Below, piece by piece: positions 23,183 through 53,585 of a DNA stretch of 64,000 bases (positions within the stretch are counted from its first letter, which is position 1; every line of letters starts with the position of its first letter). Source of the stretch: an uncultured Gammaproteobacteria bacterium. GTDB lineage: Bacteria > Patescibacteriota > Patescibacteriia > Patescibacteriales > UBA12465. The DNA is taken from the NCBI GenBank assembly GCA_964435515.1, contig CAYSZD010000001.1, forward strand, positions 4,026 to 68,025, written 5' to 3'. The notes under the pieces are model-generated. The model had not been told where the DNA came from, ran no database searches, and was given only the letters and a program-made list of their open reading frames with translations. Position numbers and translations under genes: made by a program.

Positions 23183-23253
23183 TCGGGGATCGTCTAATGG
23201 TAGGACAGTGGCCTTTGAAGCCATCAATCATGGTTCGAATCCATGTCCCCGAG
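23183..23253 (+). tRNA. tRNA-Gln (anticodon TTG)
   Basis: TCGGGGATCGTCTAATGGTAGGACAGTGGCCTTTGAAGCCATCAATCATGGTTCGAATCCATGTCCCCGAG. It has U1-A72 (typical of bacterial tRNA-Gln), anticodon stem GTGGC/GCCAT, loop CTTTGAA and T-arm CATGG-TTCGAAT-CCATG. Confidence 0.92.
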
Positions 23254-23416
23254 CAAAACACAAAATCAGGCTTTTAAGGCCTATTTTTGTTTTAATATTA
23301 GAAACATTTTAAGTTCTAAAGTGGTTCGAACTTTTTTGGGATATTTGGGATAATTTATAGTAATCTATAGAAATACCTTGATTTTATTGGTCAATATCGG
23401 TTCGAATCCATGTCCT
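23219..23416 (+). repeat. Repeat unit A: authentic tRNA-Gln 3' part + hairpin/T-run + 128-nt core
   Basis: AGCCAT...CCCCGAGCA (23219-23255), hairpin 23268-23288, core GTTTTAATATTAGA...GGTTCGAATCCATGTCCT (23289-23416). Confidence 0.85.
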
Positions 23417-23494
23417 ATTTTTAAACTTAAAATATGTTATAATGAATTTATAAAGTTAATAATATAAATAAAAAATAATTTTAAGAATTAAAAT

Positions 23495-24445
23495 ATGGCA
23501 GCACAAATTTTGATTTTAATAGTCTCATTGATAACTTTGGGATTTGCAGCAAATTACCTTGTTAACTCTAGTATAAAAATTGCTAGAAAATGGAAAGTTT
23601 CTGAAATGTTTATTGGCTTAACTATTGTTGCTATTGGAACATCTGCCCCGGAATTAGCAGTTTCCGCCTTCGCCGCCTTAAAGGGCCAAGGGGATTTGTC
23701 TGTTGGGAATGTTATTGGCTCTAATATTTTTAATTTAGGATTCATCTTGGGTCTAGTTACTATTATTGCGCCACAGGTAATTCCTAAAAAAATGGTTAAA
23801 CGAGATGGGGTGGTTCTTTTTATCTCCACAATCATGATTCTTTTTTTCATGTGGGATCTTAAAATTGTTTTTTGGGAAGGACTAATCTTATTAGCTAGTT
23901 TAGTTTCATATTTAACCCTTCTTTGGGTTAAGAAAGACGTTCAAACGGAAGAAGATGATGGAGAAGTTGCGACACGGAAAGACTATTTAATCTTTATAAT
24001 TAGTTTAGCTATTTTGGTAAAATCATCCGATTTCACAGTTTCGTCTGCTGTTTTTATTGCTGAGTACTTCAAAATTTCTGCTTGGGCTATTGGGGCAACT
24101 ATCGTTGCTGCTGGGACAAGTTTGCCCGAAATGGCCACCTCAATAATTGCCGCCTTAAAAAAGAAATTTGGTTTATCTGTCGGCAATGTGATTGGTTCCG
24201 ATATTTTTAACACGTTTGGCATAATAGGAATAAGTAGCGTTATCGCCCCAATTTCACTAATGTCAAAGGGGCAAATCTTTGGCATAGCTGATTCTGTTTT
24301 TTCTGTTATCATGTTAATAGCCACCATTCTTCTTCTATTAATATTTATGAGAAGCGGCTGGAAGATTAGTCGTAGGGAAGGAATTATCATCTTGATAATT
24401 GCTTTGATGAGAATGGCTTTTGAGGTTTATGTTGGAAAAACGTAA
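23495..24445 (+). CDS. CaCA-family cation/Ca2+ exchanger (YrbG-like)
   Basis: 316 aa, about 10 TM helices. Two alpha-repeats, GTSAPELAVS and GTSLPEMATS, each followed by GNVIGS(N/D)IFN. Confidence 0.88.
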   Translation: MAAQILILIVSLITLGFAANYLVNSSIKIARKWKVSEMFIGLTIVAIGTSAPELAVSAFAALKGQGDLSVGNVIGSNIFNLGFILGLVTIIAPQVIPKKMVKRDGVVLFISTIMILFFMWDLKIVFWEGLILLASLVSYLTLLWVKKDVQTEEDDGEVATRKDYLIFIISLAILVKSSDFTVSSAVFIAEYFKISAWAIGATIVAAGTSLPEMATSIIAALKKKFGLSVGNVIGSDIFNTFGIIGISSVIAPISLMSKGQIFGIADSVFSVIMLIATILLLLIFMRSGWKISRREGIIILIIALMRMAFEVYVGKT

Positions 24446-24570
24446 AATATAATATTTATAAATAATCGTACGAAATGTTGATGAGTTAGCCCGTATTTAT
24501 TAGATTTTTCCTTGTAACTGAGTATTACTCTTTAGAGATAGGATCGTACCTATAATTATCATCTAATTTT

Positions 24571-24737
24571 AGCCACACTATTTCGAACTTCGTCCACGAC
24601 CCCGAGCACCTTTATAGAAACGAGCGGAAACGCCCGTTTTTATTATGTAAAATCGGTTCGAAAATAACATCAAATTATTACTATTTTAGCAAACACCTTG
24701 ATTTTATTAGCTCAAAAAAGTTCGAATCCTTGTCCCT
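24571..24737 (+). repeat. Repeat unit B (most degenerate): tRNA-Gln 3'-half remnant + hairpin/T-run + shortened core
   Basis: AGCCACACTATTTCGAACTTCGTCCACGACCCCGAGCA (24571-24608), hairpin 24620-24641, then a core remnant ending CCTTGATTTTATTAGCTCAAAAAAGTTCGAATCCTTGTCCCT. Confidence 0.75.
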
Positions 24738-24775
24738 GTTTTTAAAATATTAATTATGAGATATAATTAAAATAT

Positions 24776-25285
24776 ATGAAATTTATAAAAACTATACAAT
24801 TTAAAGATCTAAGAATCGAAGATACTGATAAGTTTAAAATTCGCCGGGCAGCCAGGGCTGTTGTTTTTGATAATAATAAAAATATTGGGATTTTATATGT
24901 CAGCAAATATAATTATCATAAACTACCTGGAGGCGGTCTTGAAGGCGACGAAGCCATCGAAGGGGCGCTTAAAAGAGAATGCTTAGAAGAGATTGGGTGT
25001 AGCACAGAAATATTTGGCGAGCTTGGGGAAATTATTGAATACAGAGATAAATGGTCTTTAAAACAGCATTCATATTGCTATTTAGCTAATGTTGTCGGCG
25101 AAAAAGGGAGTCCTAATTTTACTGAAAAGGAAATAGATAATGGTTTTGAAATAAAATGGGTTTCGCTACAGGAAGCTATTAAATTACTAGAAAATGATAA
25201 GCCGGAAGATTATGAGGGAGGATTTATACAAATAAGAGATAGCAGTTTTCTTAAAGAAGCCAAGAACCTTTTAGAAACTGCATAG
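24776..25285 (+). CDS. NUDIX hydrolase
   Basis: Nudix box GGGLEGDEAIEGALKRECLEEIGC. Confidence 0.85.
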   Translation: MKFIKTIQFKDLRIEDTDKFKIRRAARAVVFDNNKNIGILYVSKYNYHKLPGGGLEGDEAIEGALKRECLEEIGCSTEIFGELGEIIEYRDKWSLKQHSYCYLANVVGEKGSPNFTEKEIDNGFEIKWVSLQEAIKLLENDKPEDYEGGFIQIRDSSFLKEAKNLLETA

Positions 25286-25294
25286 TCAACTAAT

Positions 25295-25573
25295 ATGCCA
25301 AAAAAAATAATAAAAAAGATTCTTCCTGAATATTTTCAAGATATTGTTGACGGAAAAAAGAAGTACGAGTTTCGTCTTAATGATTTTAATATTAAGGTTG
25401 GAGATACTCTAGTTTTAGAAGAGTGGACATCAGCAGATCCTAAAAATAGGCAAGCCACTGGCAGAAAATTAGAAAGAAAAGTTACGTATTTAAGAAAGTT
25501 TAAATTACAAGATTTGTGGTTTAGTGAAGAAGATATTAAAGAGAAGGGGTTTCAAATAATTTCATTCGAATGA
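25295..25573 (+). CDS. ASCH/PUA-fold small protein (DUF3850-like)
   Basis: ILPEYFQDIVDGKKKYEFRLNDFNIKVGDTLVLEEW matches the DUF3850/ASCH pattern (xPxYFxxIxxGxKxFExRxND..xxVGDxLxLxE). Ends at a TGA stop. Confidence 0.65.
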   Translation: MPKKIIKKILPEYFQDIVDGKKKYEFRLNDFNIKVGDTLVLEEWTSADPKNRQATGRKLERKVTYLRKFKLQDLWFSEEDIKEKGFQIISFE

Positions 25574-25625
25574 AATTATTTGGAAGAAAATTAAATTAAT
25601 CGGTATCTGAATTTTCCTTATTATT

Positions 25626-25825
25626 AGCCATCCACGTCCGAAAACCGTCTCTCCAAGCGAGCAAAACAACAAAATTGAGCCGAAAGGCTCTTTTTTTGTT
25701 TTAATATTAGATACATTTTAAGTTCCAAAGCGGTTCGAATATTTTTGGGATATTTTAGATAATCTACAGTAATTTATATAAAAACCTTGATTTCATTGGT
25801 CAATATTGGTTCGAATCCACGTCCT
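25626..25825 (+). repeat. Repeat unit C: tRNA-Gln 3'-half remnant + GNRA hairpin/T-run + 128-nt core
   Basis: AGCCATCCACGTCCGAAAACCGTCTCTCCAAGCGAGCA (25626-25663), GAGCC-GAAA-GGCTC + T7 (25677-25697), core 25698-25825. Confidence 0.85.
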
Positions 25826-25872
25826 GTGTTTTTGGTTTTTATATTTTAATTTTTAGGTTATAATAGTGATAT

Positions 25873-26799
25873 ATGAAACCAACACTTATCACATGTTATG
25901 TAAATCCAGACTTAGATGGGGTGGCTGGAGCCTTTGCCTATGGTGAATTTTTACAGAAGACGGGCAGAGAATCTATTGTTGGTATTATCGGAGAGCCGCA
26001 CGACGAAGCTAAATATATTTTAGATCGTTATAATATTCCATATCCCCAGAAAATAATTAATGCTGATAATTTTGATGAGGTCGTCCTGGTTGACGCCAGC
26101 GATTTAAATGGTCTTGAGGGAAATATTGCGCCGGAAAAAGTAGTTGAGATTATTGATCACAGAAAAATTAATGAAGCTGATAAATTTCCTAATGCTAGGG
26201 TGCAAATTGAATTAGTCGGCTCAGCTGCTACTTTAATAGCAGAAAAGTTTATTGAAAATAATATTAATATTTCCAAAGAGTCAGCAATTTTACTTTGTGG
26301 AGCCATTATATCCAATACTCTTAATTTTAAGGGTGGAGTTACAACAGACAGAGATAAAAAGGCCGTAGAGTATCTTGATAAAATAGCACTCTTGCCAGAT
26401 AATTTCTGGAAAGATCTTTTTATGGCCAAGTCAGATTTATCAGGAAGCAAGTTGAGTGAAAGAATTGAAGGCGATTTTGCGTGGTTTACTTTTGCTGATA
26501 AAAAAGTTGGCATTGCTCAAATTGAAATTGTCGGAGCTGAGATGCTTATCAAAGAAAGAATTGAAGAAATTATTAAGGTACTTGAGAAAATAAGGCAAGA
26601 TATGGGACTAGATTATATTTTTCAAAATACTATCGAGTTAGAGTTAGAATGTAATTATTTTATCAGTCCAGATCTAAAAACACAGAAACTATTGGAAAAA
26701 GTTTTAAATATTAAATTTAATGAGGCTGTTGCCAAAAGGCCAAATTTAATCATGCGCAAGCAAATCGTTCCACTAATTAAAGAGGAACTAGAACATTAA
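25873..26799 (+). CDS. DHH/DHHA2 phosphoesterase (family II inorganic pyrophosphatase-like)
   Basis: N-terminal NPDLDG metal motif, VDASD, IIDHRK (DHH-position motif), and a C-terminal DHHA2-like MRKQIVP motif. At 308 aa it is the size of PpaC-type enzymes. Confidence 0.75.
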   Translation: MKPTLITCYVNPDLDGVAGAFAYGEFLQKTGRESIVGIIGEPHDEAKYILDRYNIPYPQKIINADNFDEVVLVDASDLNGLEGNIAPEKVVEIIDHRKINEADKFPNARVQIELVGSAATLIAEKFIENNINISKESAILLCGAIISNTLNFKGGVTTDRDKKAVEYLDKIALLPDNFWKDLFMAKSDLSGSKLSERIEGDFAWFTFADKKVGIAQIEIVGAEMLIKERIEEIIKVLEKIRQDMGLDYIFQNTIELELECNYFISPDLKTQKLLEKVLNIKFNEAVAKRPNLIMRKQIVPLIKEELEH

Positions 26800-26821
26800 A
26801 AAAGCTATTATCTTAATTACT

Positions 26822-27364
26822 ATGGAAGAATATTTAGATATTGTTGATGAAAATAATAATATTACGGGAGAAAAGAAATTGAGATCTCTAATTCACAAAG
26901 ACGGCTCTTGGCACAGAACGGTTCATATTTATTATTTTATGAAGAAGAATAATGAATATTATTTTCTCGTTCATCTCAGGTCTAAAGCAAAAGATTTGTG
27001 CCCAAACATGTGGGACACACGTTTTGGTGGCCATTTAAAATCAGGTCAGGATGTAAAACAAACACTTATATCTGAGTTAGAAGAAGAAATTGGATTAAGG
27101 GCTGATATTAATAAATTTATTCCCGGGCCAATTTTAAAAAGAGATGATTTGCCAAACAATGAATTTACTTATGTTTATTATTATCCAGGATTAGAGGATA
27201 TTAGTAGTTTAAAATTTGCTGATAATGAGGTTCAAGAAGTGAAGTGGTTGCCAGCGCAAGATATAGTAGAGGGAATTAAAAATAATTCTAATGATTGGGC
27301 CCCTAGTTTAGAGGGTTTTGAAGGCATTTATAAGTATTTTATTGATTTTCAAGATTCTAAGTAG
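26822..27364 (+). CDS. NUDIX hydrolase
   Basis: Nudix box GGHLKSGQDVKQTLISELEEEIGL, and an upstream WHRTVHIYYF strand typical of the fold. Confidence 0.8.
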   Translation: MEEYLDIVDENNNITGEKKLRSLIHKDGSWHRTVHIYYFMKKNNEYYFLVHLRSKAKDLCPNMWDTRFGGHLKSGQDVKQTLISELEEEIGLRADINKFIPGPILKRDDLPNNEFTYVYYYPGLEDISSLKFADNEVQEVKWLPAQDIVEGIKNNSNDWAPSLEGFEGIYKYFIDFQDSK

Positions 27365-27393
27365 GATTATACTTCTAGTTTTTCTTAAATATT

Positions 27394-27592
27394 AGTCACA
27401 TTAGTTCGAACTTCGTCCACGACCCCGAGCAAAATGCGAAAGCAGGTTTTAAAAGCCTGTTTTTGTTTTAATATTAGACACATTTTAAGTTCCAAAGCGG
27501 TTCGAACATTTTTGGGATATTTTAGATAATCTATAGTAATTTGTGGAAAAGCCTTTATTTTATTGGCTCATATTGGTTCGAACTTGCGTCAT
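27394..27592 (+). repeat. Repeat unit D: tRNA-Gln 3'-half remnant + hairpin/T-run + 128-nt core (right end diverged)
   Basis: AGTCACATTAGTTCGAACTTCGTCCACGACCCCGAGCA (27394-27431; 3 differences from the unit B copy), hairpin 27443-27464, core 27465-27592. Confidence 0.85.
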
Positions 27593-27646
27593 GTTGTTTG
27601 GCTAAGTAAGTTATGATATTATATAAATATAAAATTATTTTCATGT

Positions 27647-30043
27647 ATGGAGCTTAACCTAAAAAAAATAGATTTGCCACCTCAAAAGAACGAGGATCTA
27701 AAAGAAAAAGACTGTAATTTTATAAAAAATAATTTCGAAAAGCATATTGAGTTGTATAGAAGTGTTGCGGAAAAGAAAGGCATTAAGGCGGTGAATGGTG
27801 GTTTGTTTGTGATGGTTGACGGTATTGAATATAAATACGATAGCAATGGAGATGCTTACAAGACAGAGGTTAACTCCGATGGTTGTAATTTAAATACGGG
27901 AAGGGTTGACCAGGTGGGCAGTTACTGGGAAAATAATGGGAAAATTGCTTTTGTTGATGAGCTTGGGCAAGTTTGGATTGGGGCAAATAACGATTCAAAT
28001 ATAACAGCCTTAAACGAGGCTAATTATCAAAGAAGTAGTATTTGGGTCCCGTTTTCTAACGGAGAAGAGCCGGTAGATAAGGAGGTCTATAAGAAAATTA
28101 GAGATGTGCTAACCGGGAAAGGAGGCGACCAATTAAAGATAGAAAGAAATACTAGAGTTAAAAAAATTATTAATCAAAGAGAAATATTGTTTGGGGAAGC
28201 AAATGCTTTTGTTGATGAAAATGAGTTATATGAACAAGTGGCGTATAACGATGGTGAGTATTATATTAACGAAAAAAAAATAATTAACGAAAAATTACAG
28301 CCACAAATTGAAAAAGATAATGCTGGATTTGGGCGTAAAGTTTATATAATAAATAATCAAACATTTTCTTTCAAGGGCAGGGAGGAGATGCCGGTATATG
28401 AAACGCTTGCTAATTCAAGGAGTGTTTTCTTGGGGGAAGACCCAAAATTTATTAATCCAAAAGATTTTGAAAAATATAAAGAATCGTTAGAGAATAATAA
28501 CAAAAATAAAGAATTACCTCAGCATTTTATTGTTAATAAATCTTTGTTGGGAGTTCTCGAGCTTGCCGTACAACTTGGAAGCAATGATGGGAGCCTTTTA
28601 AAAATAATTACTGATTTAAAAAAAGGTATTTATAGCGAGAGAGCGCTATTATTGCTAGATGCTCTAATAGCAGGCGACTGCATAAATATAATTTTGTACG
28701 GGGAAGAAACAGATAAAGACACCGAGGCTCTAGTTTTACTTTCTTTGCTCGGGGACGCTGATTCCCAAATAGTTGTAAGAGAAAATATGGAATTATTTCA
28801 GAATGAGATAGCGAAATTTAAAGAACGGTATAAGAAAGAAAATAATAAAGAGTATGAAAAAATTAAGCTAGAGTGGGGGTCGGAGTATGAGGCTCTAGAT
28901 ATAAAAGATCTTTGCGCTGTCCATTCTACTAGATATAAACCGGAGAGAGCCGAGGATGGGTTTACGGTTAGAACTCTTTTTGATGCAACTAATGGAGAAT
29001 ATCTTCGAAATACAATTCATGTCAGTCTTAATCATAAGGTGAAAGGGCATATGTATGGTTCTTGGGATGATGCTAACTATGTTCTAGTTTCCCCACTGGA
29101 AAGGATGGTGGAGTTAAATGGGTTGCCGCAAAGGTTAAATACTGTGGATACTTTTTGGAATGCTAATCCCGGGGCCCCAGTTGTATTCCCTGACGCCGTT
29201 TTAATCTCTCCTGGTAGCAGAGAGATGCATGAATTGTTCCAACGAGACGGGAATATTCTAAATTTTAAGTCTGAAAATTTCAGCAAAGAGGATTTGGTAG
29301 TTCTTAAAAGTGCTTTTGAAAAAGAGGGTCGCTTGAATGACTTTTTAATGATTATAGAACAGAAGTTAAAGAAAGTTTTTGAATCTTATGATTTAGATAA
29401 AAAATTAAAAGAGCAGTGGGATTTAGATGTTGTGCAAGAAAAAATTAATCAATTTTTATATAAAAACAATGATTTTAATAAAAGTCATAATTTAAACGTT
29501 TTTGACTTGTTGCCATCTACGGGCAATTCTGATTCATCAGAGGCTTATATTGACGCCTCGGTTAAGTATTTAATTGAGCAATCGGGAGCGCTGGTTGGGA
29601 TTAAGGTGGATTCTCATGATAGCAATCAGGCTATAATAGATCTGGTTAGATATTTATCTGGTGTGATTAGCTTAGTCGTTGCTCGGGTTGTTAATGAATT
29701 AGCTGTTAGCATAGTTCTTAAAACTAAAGGCTTTGATGAGAAGAAAGGAGGGGAGTCGTCATGGAGTGACTATAACTCTAAATATCAAATAATGGAACTA
29801 GGGGCAGAGCTCGGTGTTATAGGGGGGCCGCATGAAGGAGGGGAAGATGATATTGTTGTTTCAACACATCAATATTATATAAGAAAAGCGAAGGAAGACA
29901 AAAATGGAGATGAGGGGGATTTTGATTGGTCTCAATACTCATTTAGTTATGAAAAATTATTATTTAATGATTTATTAAAGAGACTGGATGCAAAAACTCT
30001 TCGTGTCATTTATGCGGCCGGAGCTTTAAATGCCAGGTATTAG
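27647..30043 (+). CDS. Large hypothetical protein (798 aa), no family recognised
   Basis: Long uninterrupted ORF directly after repeat unit D. No obvious signal peptide or TM helix. Has a beta-rich N-terminal part, a helical middle, and a conserved-looking block VHSTRYKP...RNTIHVSLNHKVKGHMYGSWDDANYVLVSP. Confidence 0.8.
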   Translation: MELNLKKIDLPPQKNEDLKEKDCNFIKNNFEKHIELYRSVAEKKGIKAVNGGLFVMVDGIEYKYDSNGDAYKTEVNSDGCNLNTGRVDQVGSYWENNGKIAFVDELGQVWIGANNDSNITALNEANYQRSSIWVPFSNGEEPVDKEVYKKIRDVLTGKGGDQLKIERNTRVKKIINQREILFGEANAFVDENELYEQVAYNDGEYYINEKKIINEKLQPQIEKDNAGFGRKVYIINNQTFSFKGREEMPVYETLANSRSVFLGEDPKFINPKDFEKYKESLENNNKNKELPQHFIVNKSLLGVLELAVQLGSNDGSLLKIITDLKKGIYSERALLLLDALIAGDCINIILYGEETDKDTEALVLLSLLGDADSQIVVRENMELFQNEIAKFKERYKKENNKEYEKIKLEWGSEYEALDIKDLCAVHSTRYKPERAEDGFTVRTLFDATNGEYLRNTIHVSLNHKVKGHMYGSWDDANYVLVSPLERMVELNGLPQRLNTVDTFWNANPGAPVVFPDAVLISPGSREMHELFQRDGNILNFKSENFSKEDLVVLKSAFEKEGRLNDFLMIIEQKLKKVFESYDLDKKLKEQWDLDVVQEKINQFLYKNNDFNKSHNLNVFDLLPSTGNSDSSEAYIDASVKYLIEQSGALVGIKVDSHDSNQAIIDLVRYLSGVISLVVARVVNELAVSIVLKTKGFDEKKGGESSWSDYNSKYQIMELGAELGVIGGPHEGGEDDIVVSTHQYYIRKAKEDKNGDEGDFDWSQYSFSYEKLLFNDLLKRLDAKTLRVIYAAGALNARY

Positions 30044-30800: not shown

Positions 30801-31235
30801 ATGCGCCTTTGGAGTCTATCGCCGCAATATTTAGACAGGCAGGGCCTTCTCGCTGTTTGGCGAGAGGGCTTATTAGCTAGAAAAGTGTTATCTAATAAGA
30901 CAAAGGGCTATAAAAATCATCCTCAATTAGATAGGTTTAAAGCAAGTGATGAACCACTTAAGAATATAGATATATATTTGTATGGAATTTTTTTAGAGGC
31001 AAAAAACAGAGGCTATAAATTTGATAAAAGCAAAATAGCTATTTGTGAGATATATAATAAGCAAATAAATGTAACTACCGGACAGGTATTATATGAGTTT
31101 AGGCATTTGCTTAATAAACTTAAAGTCAGAGATCTTGCTAAATTTGAAGAATTAAAAAATGTCACTAATCCAGAATTACATTTTATATTTAAATTAATAT
31201 CAGGTGACATAGAAAGGTGGGAAAGAGTTAAATAG
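30801..31235 (+). CDS. Pyrimidine dimer DNA glycosylase/endonuclease V-like protein
   Basis: The N-terminus MRLWSLSPQYLDRQGLLAVWREGLLARKVL...KGYKNHPQLDRF matches the conserved start of proteins annotated with this function. Confidence 0.7.
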   Translation: MRLWSLSPQYLDRQGLLAVWREGLLARKVLSNKTKGYKNHPQLDRFKASDEPLKNIDIYLYGIFLEAKNRGYKFDKSKIAICEIYNKQINVTTGQVLYEFRHLLNKLKVRDLAKFEELKNVTNPELHFIFKLISGDIERWERVK

Positions 31236-31312
31236 GAAACTTTTAATAGATAGAGCTTGCTTTTAATTCCTTTAAGATATATACTATATACACTTAATAT
31301 TTATTTAAAATT

Positions 31313-31879
31313 ATGAAAAATTTTGATCGTGGTAGTAAAAGAAATTTTGGTGGTGGTGGAGGTGGATATGAAAAGAGAGATTTTGGTGGATCTCGTGGAT
31401 TTGCTGAAAAAAAAGAGATGTTTCCAGCTATTTGTAGTGAATGTGGTAATCACTGTGAAGTGCCTTTTAGACCATCTGGTAGTAAACCAGTATTTTGTAG
31501 TGATTGTTTTCGTGGACACGATGCTCCTGCTCCTCGTAGCGGTGGTCGTGATCGTGATCGCGAATTTTCTCCATCTAGAAGTTTTCAAGAACGTCCAGAG
31601 AGGGCCAGTTTTACTCCATCTGTAAAAGACAACATGGAAGAAAGATTAGCAGCTATACATAATAAGTTGGATAAAATTATGGCTATGTTAAGCTCTAATT
31701 CTAATGTTACTAAAGCTGTTAAGGAAGATAAAGTAAAAGAGGAAGTTAAAAAAGAAATAGATGAAAAGCCTAAGGCTAAAGTAGTCGTAGAGAAGAAAGA
31801 GAAGGCTAAGGCTGTTAAAAAAGTAGCTGCACCTAAGAAGAAAGATAAAGTAGCAGTAAAAAAAGTAGCTAAAAAATAA
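31313..31879 (+). CDS. CxxC-x17-CxxC zinc-ribbon protein with RGG-like N-terminus and Lys/Ala/Val-rich (histone H1-like) tail
   Basis: CSEC-x17-CSDC with FRPSGSKPVFC (nt 31433-31507), a G-run/RG N-terminus, and the tail AKAVKKVAAPKKKDKVAVKKVAKK. Confidence 0.75.
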   Translation: MKNFDRGSKRNFGGGGGGYEKRDFGGSRGFAEKKEMFPAICSECGNHCEVPFRPSGSKPVFCSDCFRGHDAPAPRSGGRDRDREFSPSRSFQERPERASFTPSVKDNMEERLAAIHNKLDKIMAMLSSNSNVTKAVKEDKVKEEVKKEIDEKPKAKVVVEKKEKAKAVKKVAAPKKKDKVAVKKVAKK

Positions 31880-52577: not shown

Positions 52578-53585
52578 TTATTTTTTAGCCGGCATAATAG
52601 CGCCGGTTTCAATTGGAATAGGTCCGTAATTATTTGTCGGGACATATTGTCCATTCCATCTTTGAGCCTTAATCTCTTCAATCCTGAGTTTTCTAAGCTC
52701 AATCTCGAGGGTCATATTTTTAGCGACCGCATCGTTATATTTTTTAATACCCTCGCCTTCAAGAGCTTTAGCCTCAGCTTCAAGACCGGCAGCAATTTTT
52801 TTGCCTTCAGCCTGGGTAATTGTTGCAGTTTTTTCCGCTTCGGCATTTTTGACTTTTTTCTGAGCTTCCTGCTCAGTGATAAGCAGTTCTTGCTCCTTCT
52901 GTTTTACCTGTTGTGACCGGTTCATGGTCTCTTTGATTTGCTTATCAAAGTCTTCGGACCAGTCATAGTTTGTGATTTTCAGTTCAGTTACCGTTAATGG
53001 ATAACTGTTCACCATCGACCTTATCTGTTTCAGAGTTTTCATCCGGATGGTGTCCTGTGTTAAAGGTAGAACAAAGATATCATAGCGACCAACTTGGGCC
53101 TTAAAAGCCTCGATCATAGACTTGGTTAGGATGGTCATAATTTTTTCTTCTCCAAAATCTTTCCACATGATTGGTAGCCGGTCTTTATCGTAAACAAAAA
53201 ATAGCGTTAAATTGGCACCAATTGTTTGGTTGTCCTTGGTGATAGCACCATTGCCATCAACTTCAATTTCTGCTTTTATCTCAATTGGTTGAATTGAGAC
53301 ATTTTCGATACTTTGGATAAAGGGCGCTTTAAAATGTAGCCCTGGATCCAATGCTTTCGGGGAGATAGCGCCAAATGTAAATCTTAGTCCTCTTACGTCG
53401 CTGTTTATGGTTTTTATGCTCATGGAGAGCAGAAGCACAATAATGCCGGCGATTAAGATGTTTGTGGCATTTTTTTTGCTCATAAAATCTTTGCCTTCCA
53501 GATTTTTAAGGCCAAGTTTCATGACGAAATAAAAAGTTATCGCTGCCATAGCGACAATAAACAGTACTACATTTAAAATGTTCAT
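52578..53585 (-). CDS. SPFH/band-7 (prohibitin/HflC-like) membrane protein with coiled-coil tail
   Basis: N-terminal TM helix, SPFH core (GLRFTFGAISPKALDPGLHFKAPFIQ) and a charged coiled coil (EQEAQKKVKNAEAEK...). Confidence 0.85.
   Translation of the reverse strand: MNILNVVLFIVAMAAITFYFVMKLGLKNLEGKDFMSKKNATNILIAGIIVLLLSMSIKTINSDVRGLRFTFGAISPKALDPGLHFKAPFIQSIENVSIQPIEIKAEIEVDGNGAITKDNQTIGANLTLFFVYDKDRLPIMWKDFGEEKIMTILTKSMIEAFKAQVGRYDIFVLPLTQDTIRMKTLKQIRSMVNSYPLTVTELKITNYDWSEDFDKQIKETMNRSQQVKQKEQELLITEQEAQKKVKNAEAEKTATITQAEGKKIAAGLEAEAKALEGEGIKKYNDAVAKNMTLEIELRKLRIEEIKAQRWNGQYVPTNNYGPIPIETGAIMPAKK

Follow-up and report, generated by a model that had tools for sequence, protein, structure and literature searches.

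What does the protein do that is encoded at the end of a tRNA-Gln repeat array in an uncultured bacterium, and has anything like it been seen elsewhere? The gene, an open reading frame (ORF) of 798 amino acids (aa), lies in a stretch of 64,000 nucleotides (nt), hereafter the window, taken from contig CAYSZD010000001.1 (positions 4,026 to 68,025, forward strand) of assembly GCA_964435515.1, deposited as an uncultured Gammaproteobacteria bacterium and placed by GTDB in the Patescibacteriota (UBA12465), among the candidate phyla radiation (CPR). A preliminary description had called it an ORFan, the terminal and largest gene of a mobile cassette, and suggested an effector, toxin or defence protein. 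We find a member of a large family whose conserved core carries a candidate active site and is also built into phage tape-measure proteins. We tentatively read this core as a stand-alone catalytic module, an effector-type enzyme that would act on a component of a target cell.

The gene is not an ORFan. A word-indexed search returned 41 homologues that align over essentially their full length at 28–45% identity, most of them ~915 aa long and from CPR bins (Shapirobacteria and Levyibacteriota, with some bins mislabelled). A family profile built from 40 homologues and run exhaustively against 1.84 billion cluster representatives matched 1588 of them at E ≤ 1e-3; the count falls to 838 at E ≤ 1e-10 and to 338 at E ≤ 1e-30. 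At 50% identity, this makes a family of about 1600 clusters. The window protein scores 995 bits against the profile (E 4e-294) and carries every family-defining residue (H426/T428, R454/H458/N462, D501/T502, the G695 helix and H729). Most of the 1588 matches are 500–650 aa long and align only to the part of the profile equivalent to window residues ~215–798, and thus the family is large and its core is the C-terminal three quarters of the window protein. The majority are CPR proteins, with lengths of about 600 or 915 aa. A domain-profile search of a word index of 5.8 billion proteins yielded one fragment only, and tblastn found no match to the family in isolated phages (INPHARED) or plasmids (PLSDB).

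Full-length or core forms were found in CPR bins of Shapiro-, Dojka-, Roizman- and Saccharibacteria, Paceibacterota and Peribacteraceae in a scan of GTDB species representatives that used narrow patterns. About 20 alphaproteobacterial bins (Ca. Enterousia, rumen and gut metagenome-assembled genomes, and one labelled Rickettsiales) matched only at aa ~418–550, and one bin labelled Bdellovibrionales carries a family member. Ca. Enterousia/Rs-D84 genomes are smaller than 1 Mbp and lack the tricarboxylic acid cycle and respiration (PMC12306168). Cellular carriers are mostly host-dependent lineages with reduced genomes. Four GTDB contigs (L009, L012, L016 and L020) encode full-length CPR-type members yet bear the labels ‘Woesearchaeota archaeon’ or ‘uncultured Gammaproteobacteria’. 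Binning or labelling mistakes are the probable cause, and the taxonomic labels of the family should therefore be read with caution.

An AlphaFold2 model of the full-length protein, computed with 40 homologues as input, reached a mean predicted local distance difference test score (pLDDT) of 87.4 and a predicted template modelling score of 0.83; a model of the central domain by itself had a pLDDT of 83.1. Five parts can be read from the model and the alignments (Table 1), with an N-terminal helix ahead of the beta-rich N-terminal module (N-module). The N-module pattern, ‘VG.Y..NNG..AFVD...AGY....VPFSNGE’, occurs once in the window protein, twice in the ~915-aa homologues and at least four times in one protein, P0041. 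It is an independent unit and the sole recognisable part of many proteins of 250–320 aa. Proteins that carry it are P0041, P0068, P0110, P0119, P0136, P0145, P0154, P0155 and P0159. Pfam holds no model for the N-module; one stand-alone protein, P0136, matches LytM_N (E 1.8e-7).

Downstream of the N-module, CPR-type and Bdellovibrionales-labelled forms have the first conserved core segment, which alphaproteobacterial ones lack. The latter, of 386–524 aa, are without all three parts ahead of the central domain, start straight at this domain, which is autonomous in them, and keep the G695 helix and the equivalent of His729. The core is a compact two-part module joined to different N-terminal parts. 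A 1605-aa protein (L081:5778–10595, contig GC 0.48) has yet another architecture, with the central domain at residues 871–1009 and no Pfam domain. The helical region that the preliminary description noticed ahead of its most distinctive block is borne out by the model.

That block (DLCAVHST...SPLERM) proved to be the most conserved part of the family and coincides with the central domain, in which five motifs recur: V-H426-x-T428-x-Y-x-P432; R454-x-[TS]-x-H458-x-[TSA]-L-N462-H-x-V465; G-x-W473; N491-G-x-P494; and D501-[TS]-[YWF]-[WF]. H458 and D501 are present in all 138 aligned sequences, as is Thr or Ser at position 502, with Thr or Ser at position 456 in 137. Conservation then declines slowly through R454 (134/138), Thr or Ser at 428 (133/138), N462 and P432 (131/138 each) to H426 (125/138). 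Such a pattern is typical of an active site. Invariant polar residues in a confidently folded domain thus point to an enzyme.

Table 1 Positions of the 798-aa gene, its parts and the adjoining repeat array in the window.
Feature	Coordinates	Strand	Evidence and remarks
798-aa ORF with stop codon	27647..30043	+	Complete ORF, ATG start; family member with a single N-module; homologues; AlphaFold2 model
N-terminal beta-rich module	27782..28081 (aa ~46–145)	+	‘VGSYWENNGKIAFVD...VPFSNGEEP’; alignment, secondary structure, stand-alone matches to profile positions 4–260
First conserved core segment, small beta	28298..28537 (aa ~218–297)	+	‘EKDNAGFGRKVY..FSFKGREEMPVY’, ‘FSFKGREE.P.Y’
Helical region	28538..28882 (aa ~298–412)	+	Conserved D338, A342, G369; helices predicted at 300–410 in the model
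Central beta-rich domain, family signature, putative catalytic domain	28901..29293 (aa 419–549)	+	Conservation and domain model
Codon of invariant His458	29018..29020	+	Family alignment
Codon of invariant Asp501	29147..29149	+	Family alignment
C-terminal helical region	29294..30040 (aa 550–798)	+	‘AV..x..GF’ helix (G695); His729 (‘LG.....H’); end motif R785-R786-x-x-Y-x-x-G792
Intact tRNA-Gln(UUG), head of the four-unit array	23183..23254	+	Followed by units A (23255–23439), B (about 24539–24745), C (25664–25848) and D
Repeat unit D	27362..27615	+	Degenerate tRNA-Gln 3' half (…GTTCGAACTTCGTCCACGACCCCGAGCA, end 27431), terminator-like hairpin 27436–27466, ~150 nt of tRNA-Gln-downstream sequence

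Viral copies of the module bear on where it may act. Six IMG/VR viral contigs and one metagenome contig (L044–L049 and L084) carry the helical region together with the central domain (BLASTP alignments span aa 274–522 and 302–520), placed in the distal part, at about residues 2660–2910, of proteins of 2983–3197 aa. These are tape-measure proteins, as judged by matches to PhageMin_Tail (E 3e-29) and to tape-measure PHROGs (E 1e-121) and by the minor tail genes downstream, and their length of ~3000 aa implies very long tails. They keep H426, T428, R454, H458, W473 and D501-T-x-W (T502, W504) and lack N462/H463; an apparent ‘ALGL...H’ (‘LG...H’) motif was read in them by eye. The phage contigs are 13–60 kb long with a GC content of 0.34–0.39 at the loci, and no domain was recognised in the tape-measure proteins beyond the N-terminal PhageMin_Tail and the module. 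The low GC content, together with a helical region of CPR type, hints that these phages infect CPR bacteria. Tape-measure proteins are ejected into the host upon infection, their C-terminal regions interact with the host envelope, and the known domains embedded in them are usually peptidoglycan hydrolases.

The preliminary description could assign no family or motif to the protein, and our searches agree. The window protein alone had no significant match in Pfam, NCBIfam, PADLOC, PHROGs or PDB sequences, and family profiles (A2, A3 and A7) had none among PDB sequences. When 72 diverse members were scanned transitively against Pfam, only noise came back (DUF6303 in five members, best E 0.008). 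Structure comparison with Foldseek gave no significant hit for the full model (best E 0.97 against PDB and 0.35 against BFVD) or for the domain model against PDB (best E 0.49). The 2H phosphoesterases, LAS/M15, amidase_2, NodB deacetylases, HKD and cupins were considered and rejected by eye on motif order or spacing, both of which failed to fit for LAS, amidase_2 and NodB, and none gave a fold match.

Because the core is found both in a tape-measure protein that is ejected into the host and in mostly host-dependent carriers, we infer that it acts at or in a target cell, on a substrate that many bacteria would share. We hypothesize that the catalytic core combines the beta-rich domain, with invariant His458 and Asp501 and near-invariant His426, Thr428, Arg454 and Asn462, with a helical region contributing His729, and that it would be a hydrolase or group-transferase. 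The simplest chemistry would be metal-dependent or acid/base catalysis through the His and Asp residues, with Arg possibly binding a phosphate or carboxylate. The module would act on a widely conserved component of the target bacterium, in the envelope or the cytoplasm. In a CPR-like genome the protein may serve as an interaction or effector enzyme that leaves the cell by a non-Sec route, and its N-terminal ‘SNNG...VPFSNGE’ module could be an accessory binding or targeting unit.

Several observations weigh against an effector-type enzyme, chief among them the missing export signal and partner gene and the housekeeping neighbourhoods. As the preliminary description had noted, the window protein has neither a signal peptide, its N-terminus being polar and charged, nor a credible transmembrane segment, both of its most hydrophobic 19-residue stretches containing charged residues; an export signal, transmembrane segment or known trafficking domain was found in none of 164 family representatives (0/164). 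No immunity-like partner gene was found across the loci, and most CPR homologues lie among housekeeping genes. No enzyme gave a significant match in sequence or fold, and in Pfam, PDB and Foldseek searches the module matched none of the peptidoglycan hydrolase families (SLT/lysozyme, M23, NlpC/P60, amidase, LAS). In the Enterousia group the gene order is locally conserved (acyl-CoA synthetase, tRNA-Pro, the family gene, an MltG/YceG-like gene), which suggests vertical inheritance there.

Of the three roles first suggested for the protein, that of an effector retains indirect backing from the module in phage tape-measure proteins and from its host-dependent carriers. A toxin is not favoured: a check for polymorphic-toxin traits revealed no conserved immunity-like gene next door and no N-terminal trafficking domain, and the core is conserved from phylum to phylum, not polymorphic. 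A defence role fares no better, with no PADLOC match and no defence island. The preliminary description also held that a match to a housekeeping family, or homologues universally present outside islands, would speak against its view. Many homologues do reside among ordinary housekeeping genes and not on islands; the family is not universal, and no housekeeping family was matched.

The gene sits at varying genomic positions across the family, and its neighbourhoods supply no common partner. Clustering of the genes around 61 non-redundant loci found no neighbour family shared across lineages, and a large serine recombinase lay within 5 kb in 4 of the 61. At 103 sampled CPR-type positions, the two neighbours on either side were mostly housekeeping genes (TsaD, Mur ligases, FemAB, sigma-70, RNR, ThyA, FtsZ, RuvC), with no Pfam family seen more than twice. 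A tRNA gene lay within 400 nt of 9 of 55 family genes, compared with 47 of 401 control ORFs from the same loci (p=0.38); the apparent association vanished against this control, and a functional or integrative link to tRNA genes was dropped. No att-like duplications were found around the homologues at L001, L013 and L025. One Levyibacteriota locus (L002/L003:4832–7722) has the look of a genuine integrated element with a family member on board: a large serine recombinase gene overlaps a tRNA-Asn, a Phage_rep_O-like gene comes next, and the family gene and a gene for a 1554-aa protein adjoin. A DUF3850/ASCH-like gene sits in the window array (25295–25573) and another, 49% identical, directly 3' of the Shapirobacteria homologue (L001:10918–11178). 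This double occurrence may be loose linkage or coincidence.

How far is the gene part of a cassette? It lies between repeat unit D, 31 nt upstream, and a peroxiredoxin gene 39 nt downstream, and it is, as first described, the largest of the array genes, the others encoding 316, 169, 92, 308 and 180 aa. The array (23183–27615) consists of tandemly spaced units of about 185–250 nt. An alignment of the four intergenic regions shows that B, C and D are each composed of a degenerate copy of the tRNA-Gln(UUG) 3' half, a terminator-like hairpin and ~150 nt of sequence found downstream of the tRNA. The tRNA-derived copy at the head of these three units reads …GTTCGAA…CCCCGAGCA, and two more T-arm-like boxes, ‘GGTTCGAA’, come after it along with the hairpin; unit B has internal deletions of ~21 nt and ~12 nt relative to A, C and D. 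Small sets of genes lie between the units (an Na/Ca exchanger; NUDIX and DUF3850; DHH/DHHA2 and NUDIX). The array looks like the outcome of repeated insertion at a single tRNA, with no integrase surviving.

Only four units were found in the whole window, so the 798-aa gene does follow the last of them. At 0.31, its GC content at third codon positions (GC3) exceeds the window mean of 0.226 (standard deviation 0.042; z=+2.0) and ranks third of 53 ORFs, with the first cassette gene ranking second. The gene’s overall GC is ordinary (0.355 versus 0.33). The GC3 outlier makes horizontal acquisition plausible on compositional grounds. Against a cassette in the strict sense, no repeat unit lies 3' of the gene and none occurs as a fifth unit in the window, leaving it bounded on one side, and there is no integrase or recombinase between 17.6 and 39.6 kb, that is, within about 10 kb of the gene. 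Cassette status is therefore only partly supported. The most deviant GC3 in the window belongs to a 335-aa ORF on the reverse strand (52578–53585; 0.40, more than 4 standard deviations above the mean), which may be another acquired gene.

To the left of the array are genes of cell division and the cell wall (DivIC, a DacB-like penicillin-binding protein (PBP), FtsE and FtsX). To the right of the 798-aa gene follow the peroxiredoxin, a T4-endoV-like glycosylase, a zinc-finger protein, peptidase U32, PGA_cap, a two-component pair and PBP2. The two genes directly 3' of the peroxiredoxin (30801–31879) encode a T4 endonuclease V-type pyrimidine-dimer glycosylase (Pyr_excise) and a treble-clef zinc-finger protein (zf_Tbcl_2). 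The accessory region headed by the tRNA-Gln may extend to these stress and repair genes.

Several of these neighbourhoods bear on the alternative that survives best, namely that the protein works inside its own cell as a cytoplasmic ‘lifestyle’ enzyme, for example by salvaging or recycling a polymer fragment from the host (muropeptide, nucleic acid, nucleotide) that bacteria with reduced genomes must scavenge, phages having captured the activity in their tape-measure protein to attack the polymer locally. Such an enzyme would fit the uniform lack of export signals and the mostly housekeeping neighbours. It would also suit the syntenic Enterousia copies, which adjoin an MltG/YceG-like gene in genomes smaller than 1 Mbp, the nucleotide-metabolism genes of the window array (two NUDIX, DHH/DHHA2, DUF3850) and the DUF3850 and nucleoside hydrolase genes downstream of the Shapirobacteria homologue. 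The family is, however, patchy, with no conserved operon or pathway partner and no match to a salvage or recycling family. Nor was it universal in CPR in the scans made, which used narrow patterns, and the GC3 outlier suggests an acquired copy. We regard this explanation as somewhat unlikely, and continue to prefer an enzyme that acts on a target cell.

A second alternative concerns the chemistry. The central domain might be a very divergent Tpt1/KptA-like, NAD+-binding ADP-ribosyltransferase (ART) fold with an ‘H-H-D’ form of the H-Y-[EDQ] triad (His426-x-Thr on strand 1, His458 and Asp501), and nucleic acid or protein of the target cell would be its substrate. Motif by motif there is a likeness to Escherichia coli KptA (LCAVHST/FLYHGT, RNTIHVS/ERHYVHLS and VLVSP..NGLP/VILTV..RGLP). 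A Tpt1 profile built from E. coli kptA (NC_000913), 101 homologues and 3 PDB sequences was compared by hhalign with the 138-sequence domain profile, and the best local alignment fell in exactly that register: H426 against the His of LYHGT, R454/H458 against RHYVH, and VLVSP..NGLP against VILTV..RGLP. In the model, H426-x-T428, H458 and D501 sit on strands in the order expected of an ART, although such short motifs may arise by chance. Tpt1 (8tg4, 8tg3, 8tg6 and 9ldi) and pierisin-1 (TMq 0.30) were also the only recurrent themes among the sub-threshold Foldseek hits with better TM-scores.

The sequence resemblance does not rise above chance. The hhalign comparison scored 12 (P=0.34, probability 0.2%), 62 of 150 column-shuffled Tpt1 profiles scored as high, and reversed controls scored alike. 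The best hit by TM-score, the Tpt1 structure 9ldi, aligned with TMq 0.36 and a root-mean-square deviation of 6.4 Å (E 2.6, prob 0.15); the Tpt1 and pierisin-1 hits all had E>1 and TM<0.4, and every hit of the domain model was below significance. Foldseek with the full-length model, Pfam and hidden Markov model searches against PDB returned no ART, and the fold would require a hairpin and a loop in place of two helices of the Tpt1 NAD lobe. With shuffled profiles scoring as high, the homology claim has no statistical support, and the protein was not filed under ARTs; we consider an ART fold quite improbable.

Two further alternatives were weighed. A non-enzymatic scaffold or binding module, for instance an envelope- or membrane-interacting piece used by tape-measure proteins in channel formation, with the His and Asp residues structural or metal-structural, would agree with the absence of a catalytic family match and with the envelope contacts of tape-measure C-terminal regions. 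It is nevertheless very unlikely, given that an invariant His and Asp, a near-invariant Arg, Asn and Thr, and a second and third His, all held at an otherwise 20–30% identity, are typical of active sites, and that there are no hydrophobic segments for membrane insertion. Least probable of all is a single-gene anti-phage defence or abortive-infection protein on an island, for which a large stand-alone protein beside a tRNA insertion array and the restriction-modification genes, MazE/PIN pair or serine recombinases near some homologues might speak, since PADLOC gave no match to the window protein at E ≤ 1, defence matches among the 103 immediate neighbours were sporadic with no defence-island context and mostly housekeeping genes around, and residence in a phage structural protein argues for offensive use.

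About one in two CPR genes lacks a functional assignment, and little is understood of the ways in which these episymbionts manipulate their hosts. An uncharacterised CPR protein is in itself no surprise, as such proteins are common; what distinguishes this family is its size, a clean candidate active site, the lack of any relative in sequence or fold although the models are confident, and the tape-measure fusion. Its distribution is unusual, taking in CPR, gut Alphaproteobacteria with reduced genomes, a bin labelled Bdellovibrionales and phage tape-measure proteins. The candidate active site (His426, Arg454, His458, Asp501 and His729), in a confidently modelled core, is a handle for experiment. 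An enzyme embedded in a tape-measure protein, with cellular homologues of cytoplasmic type, would widen the known cargo of phage tails; if the protein is instead a self-acting salvage enzyme, a gap in the metabolism of reduced genomes would be filled. A bolder version of the effector-type enzyme, which we think unlikely, is that the core is an undescribed catalytic fold and a new enzyme class of ultra-small, host-dependent bacteria (CPR and Rs-D84 Alphaproteobacteria) and phages that would modify or cleave a target-cell component, possibly as an extremely divergent NAD+-using Tpt1-like transferase.

Three known systems invite comparison. Enzymatic domains are known in phage tape-measure proteins, among them the Rpf-like/lytic motifs of mycobacteriophage TM4 Tmp and the muralytic C-terminus of T5 Pb2. 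As in those, the module lies distally in a giant tape-measure protein beside tail genes and has cellular homologues; in contrast to them, it bears no sequence or fold likeness to lysozyme/SLT, M23, NlpC/P60, amidase or any other curated family, and its cellular homologues lack export signals. With the NAD+ lobe of Tpt1/KptA (ART fold, H-H-h clade; PF01885) the central domain shares H-x-T on strand 1, R-x-x-H-x-S on a later strand, a strand-helix-‘G-L-P’ arrangement and a conserved start to the next strand. The likeness is at chance level, however. The protein has Asp501 where the third position should be hydrophobic and lacks the Tpt1 RNA lobe with its R-H-R-R tetrad, and the secondary structure between the strands differs. 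Injected phage virion effectors such as T4 Alt, and polyvalent or MuF-fused toxin proteins (Iyer et al. 2017; Jamet et al. 2017), likewise join a cellular enzyme-like module to a virion protein that passes into the host. Here the carrier is a tape-measure protein and not a head or MuF protein, and the module is conserved, not polymorphic, and has no immunity gene. The family thus falls within an already known sort, that of enzyme-like modules common to phage tail or injected proteins and to cellular proteins.

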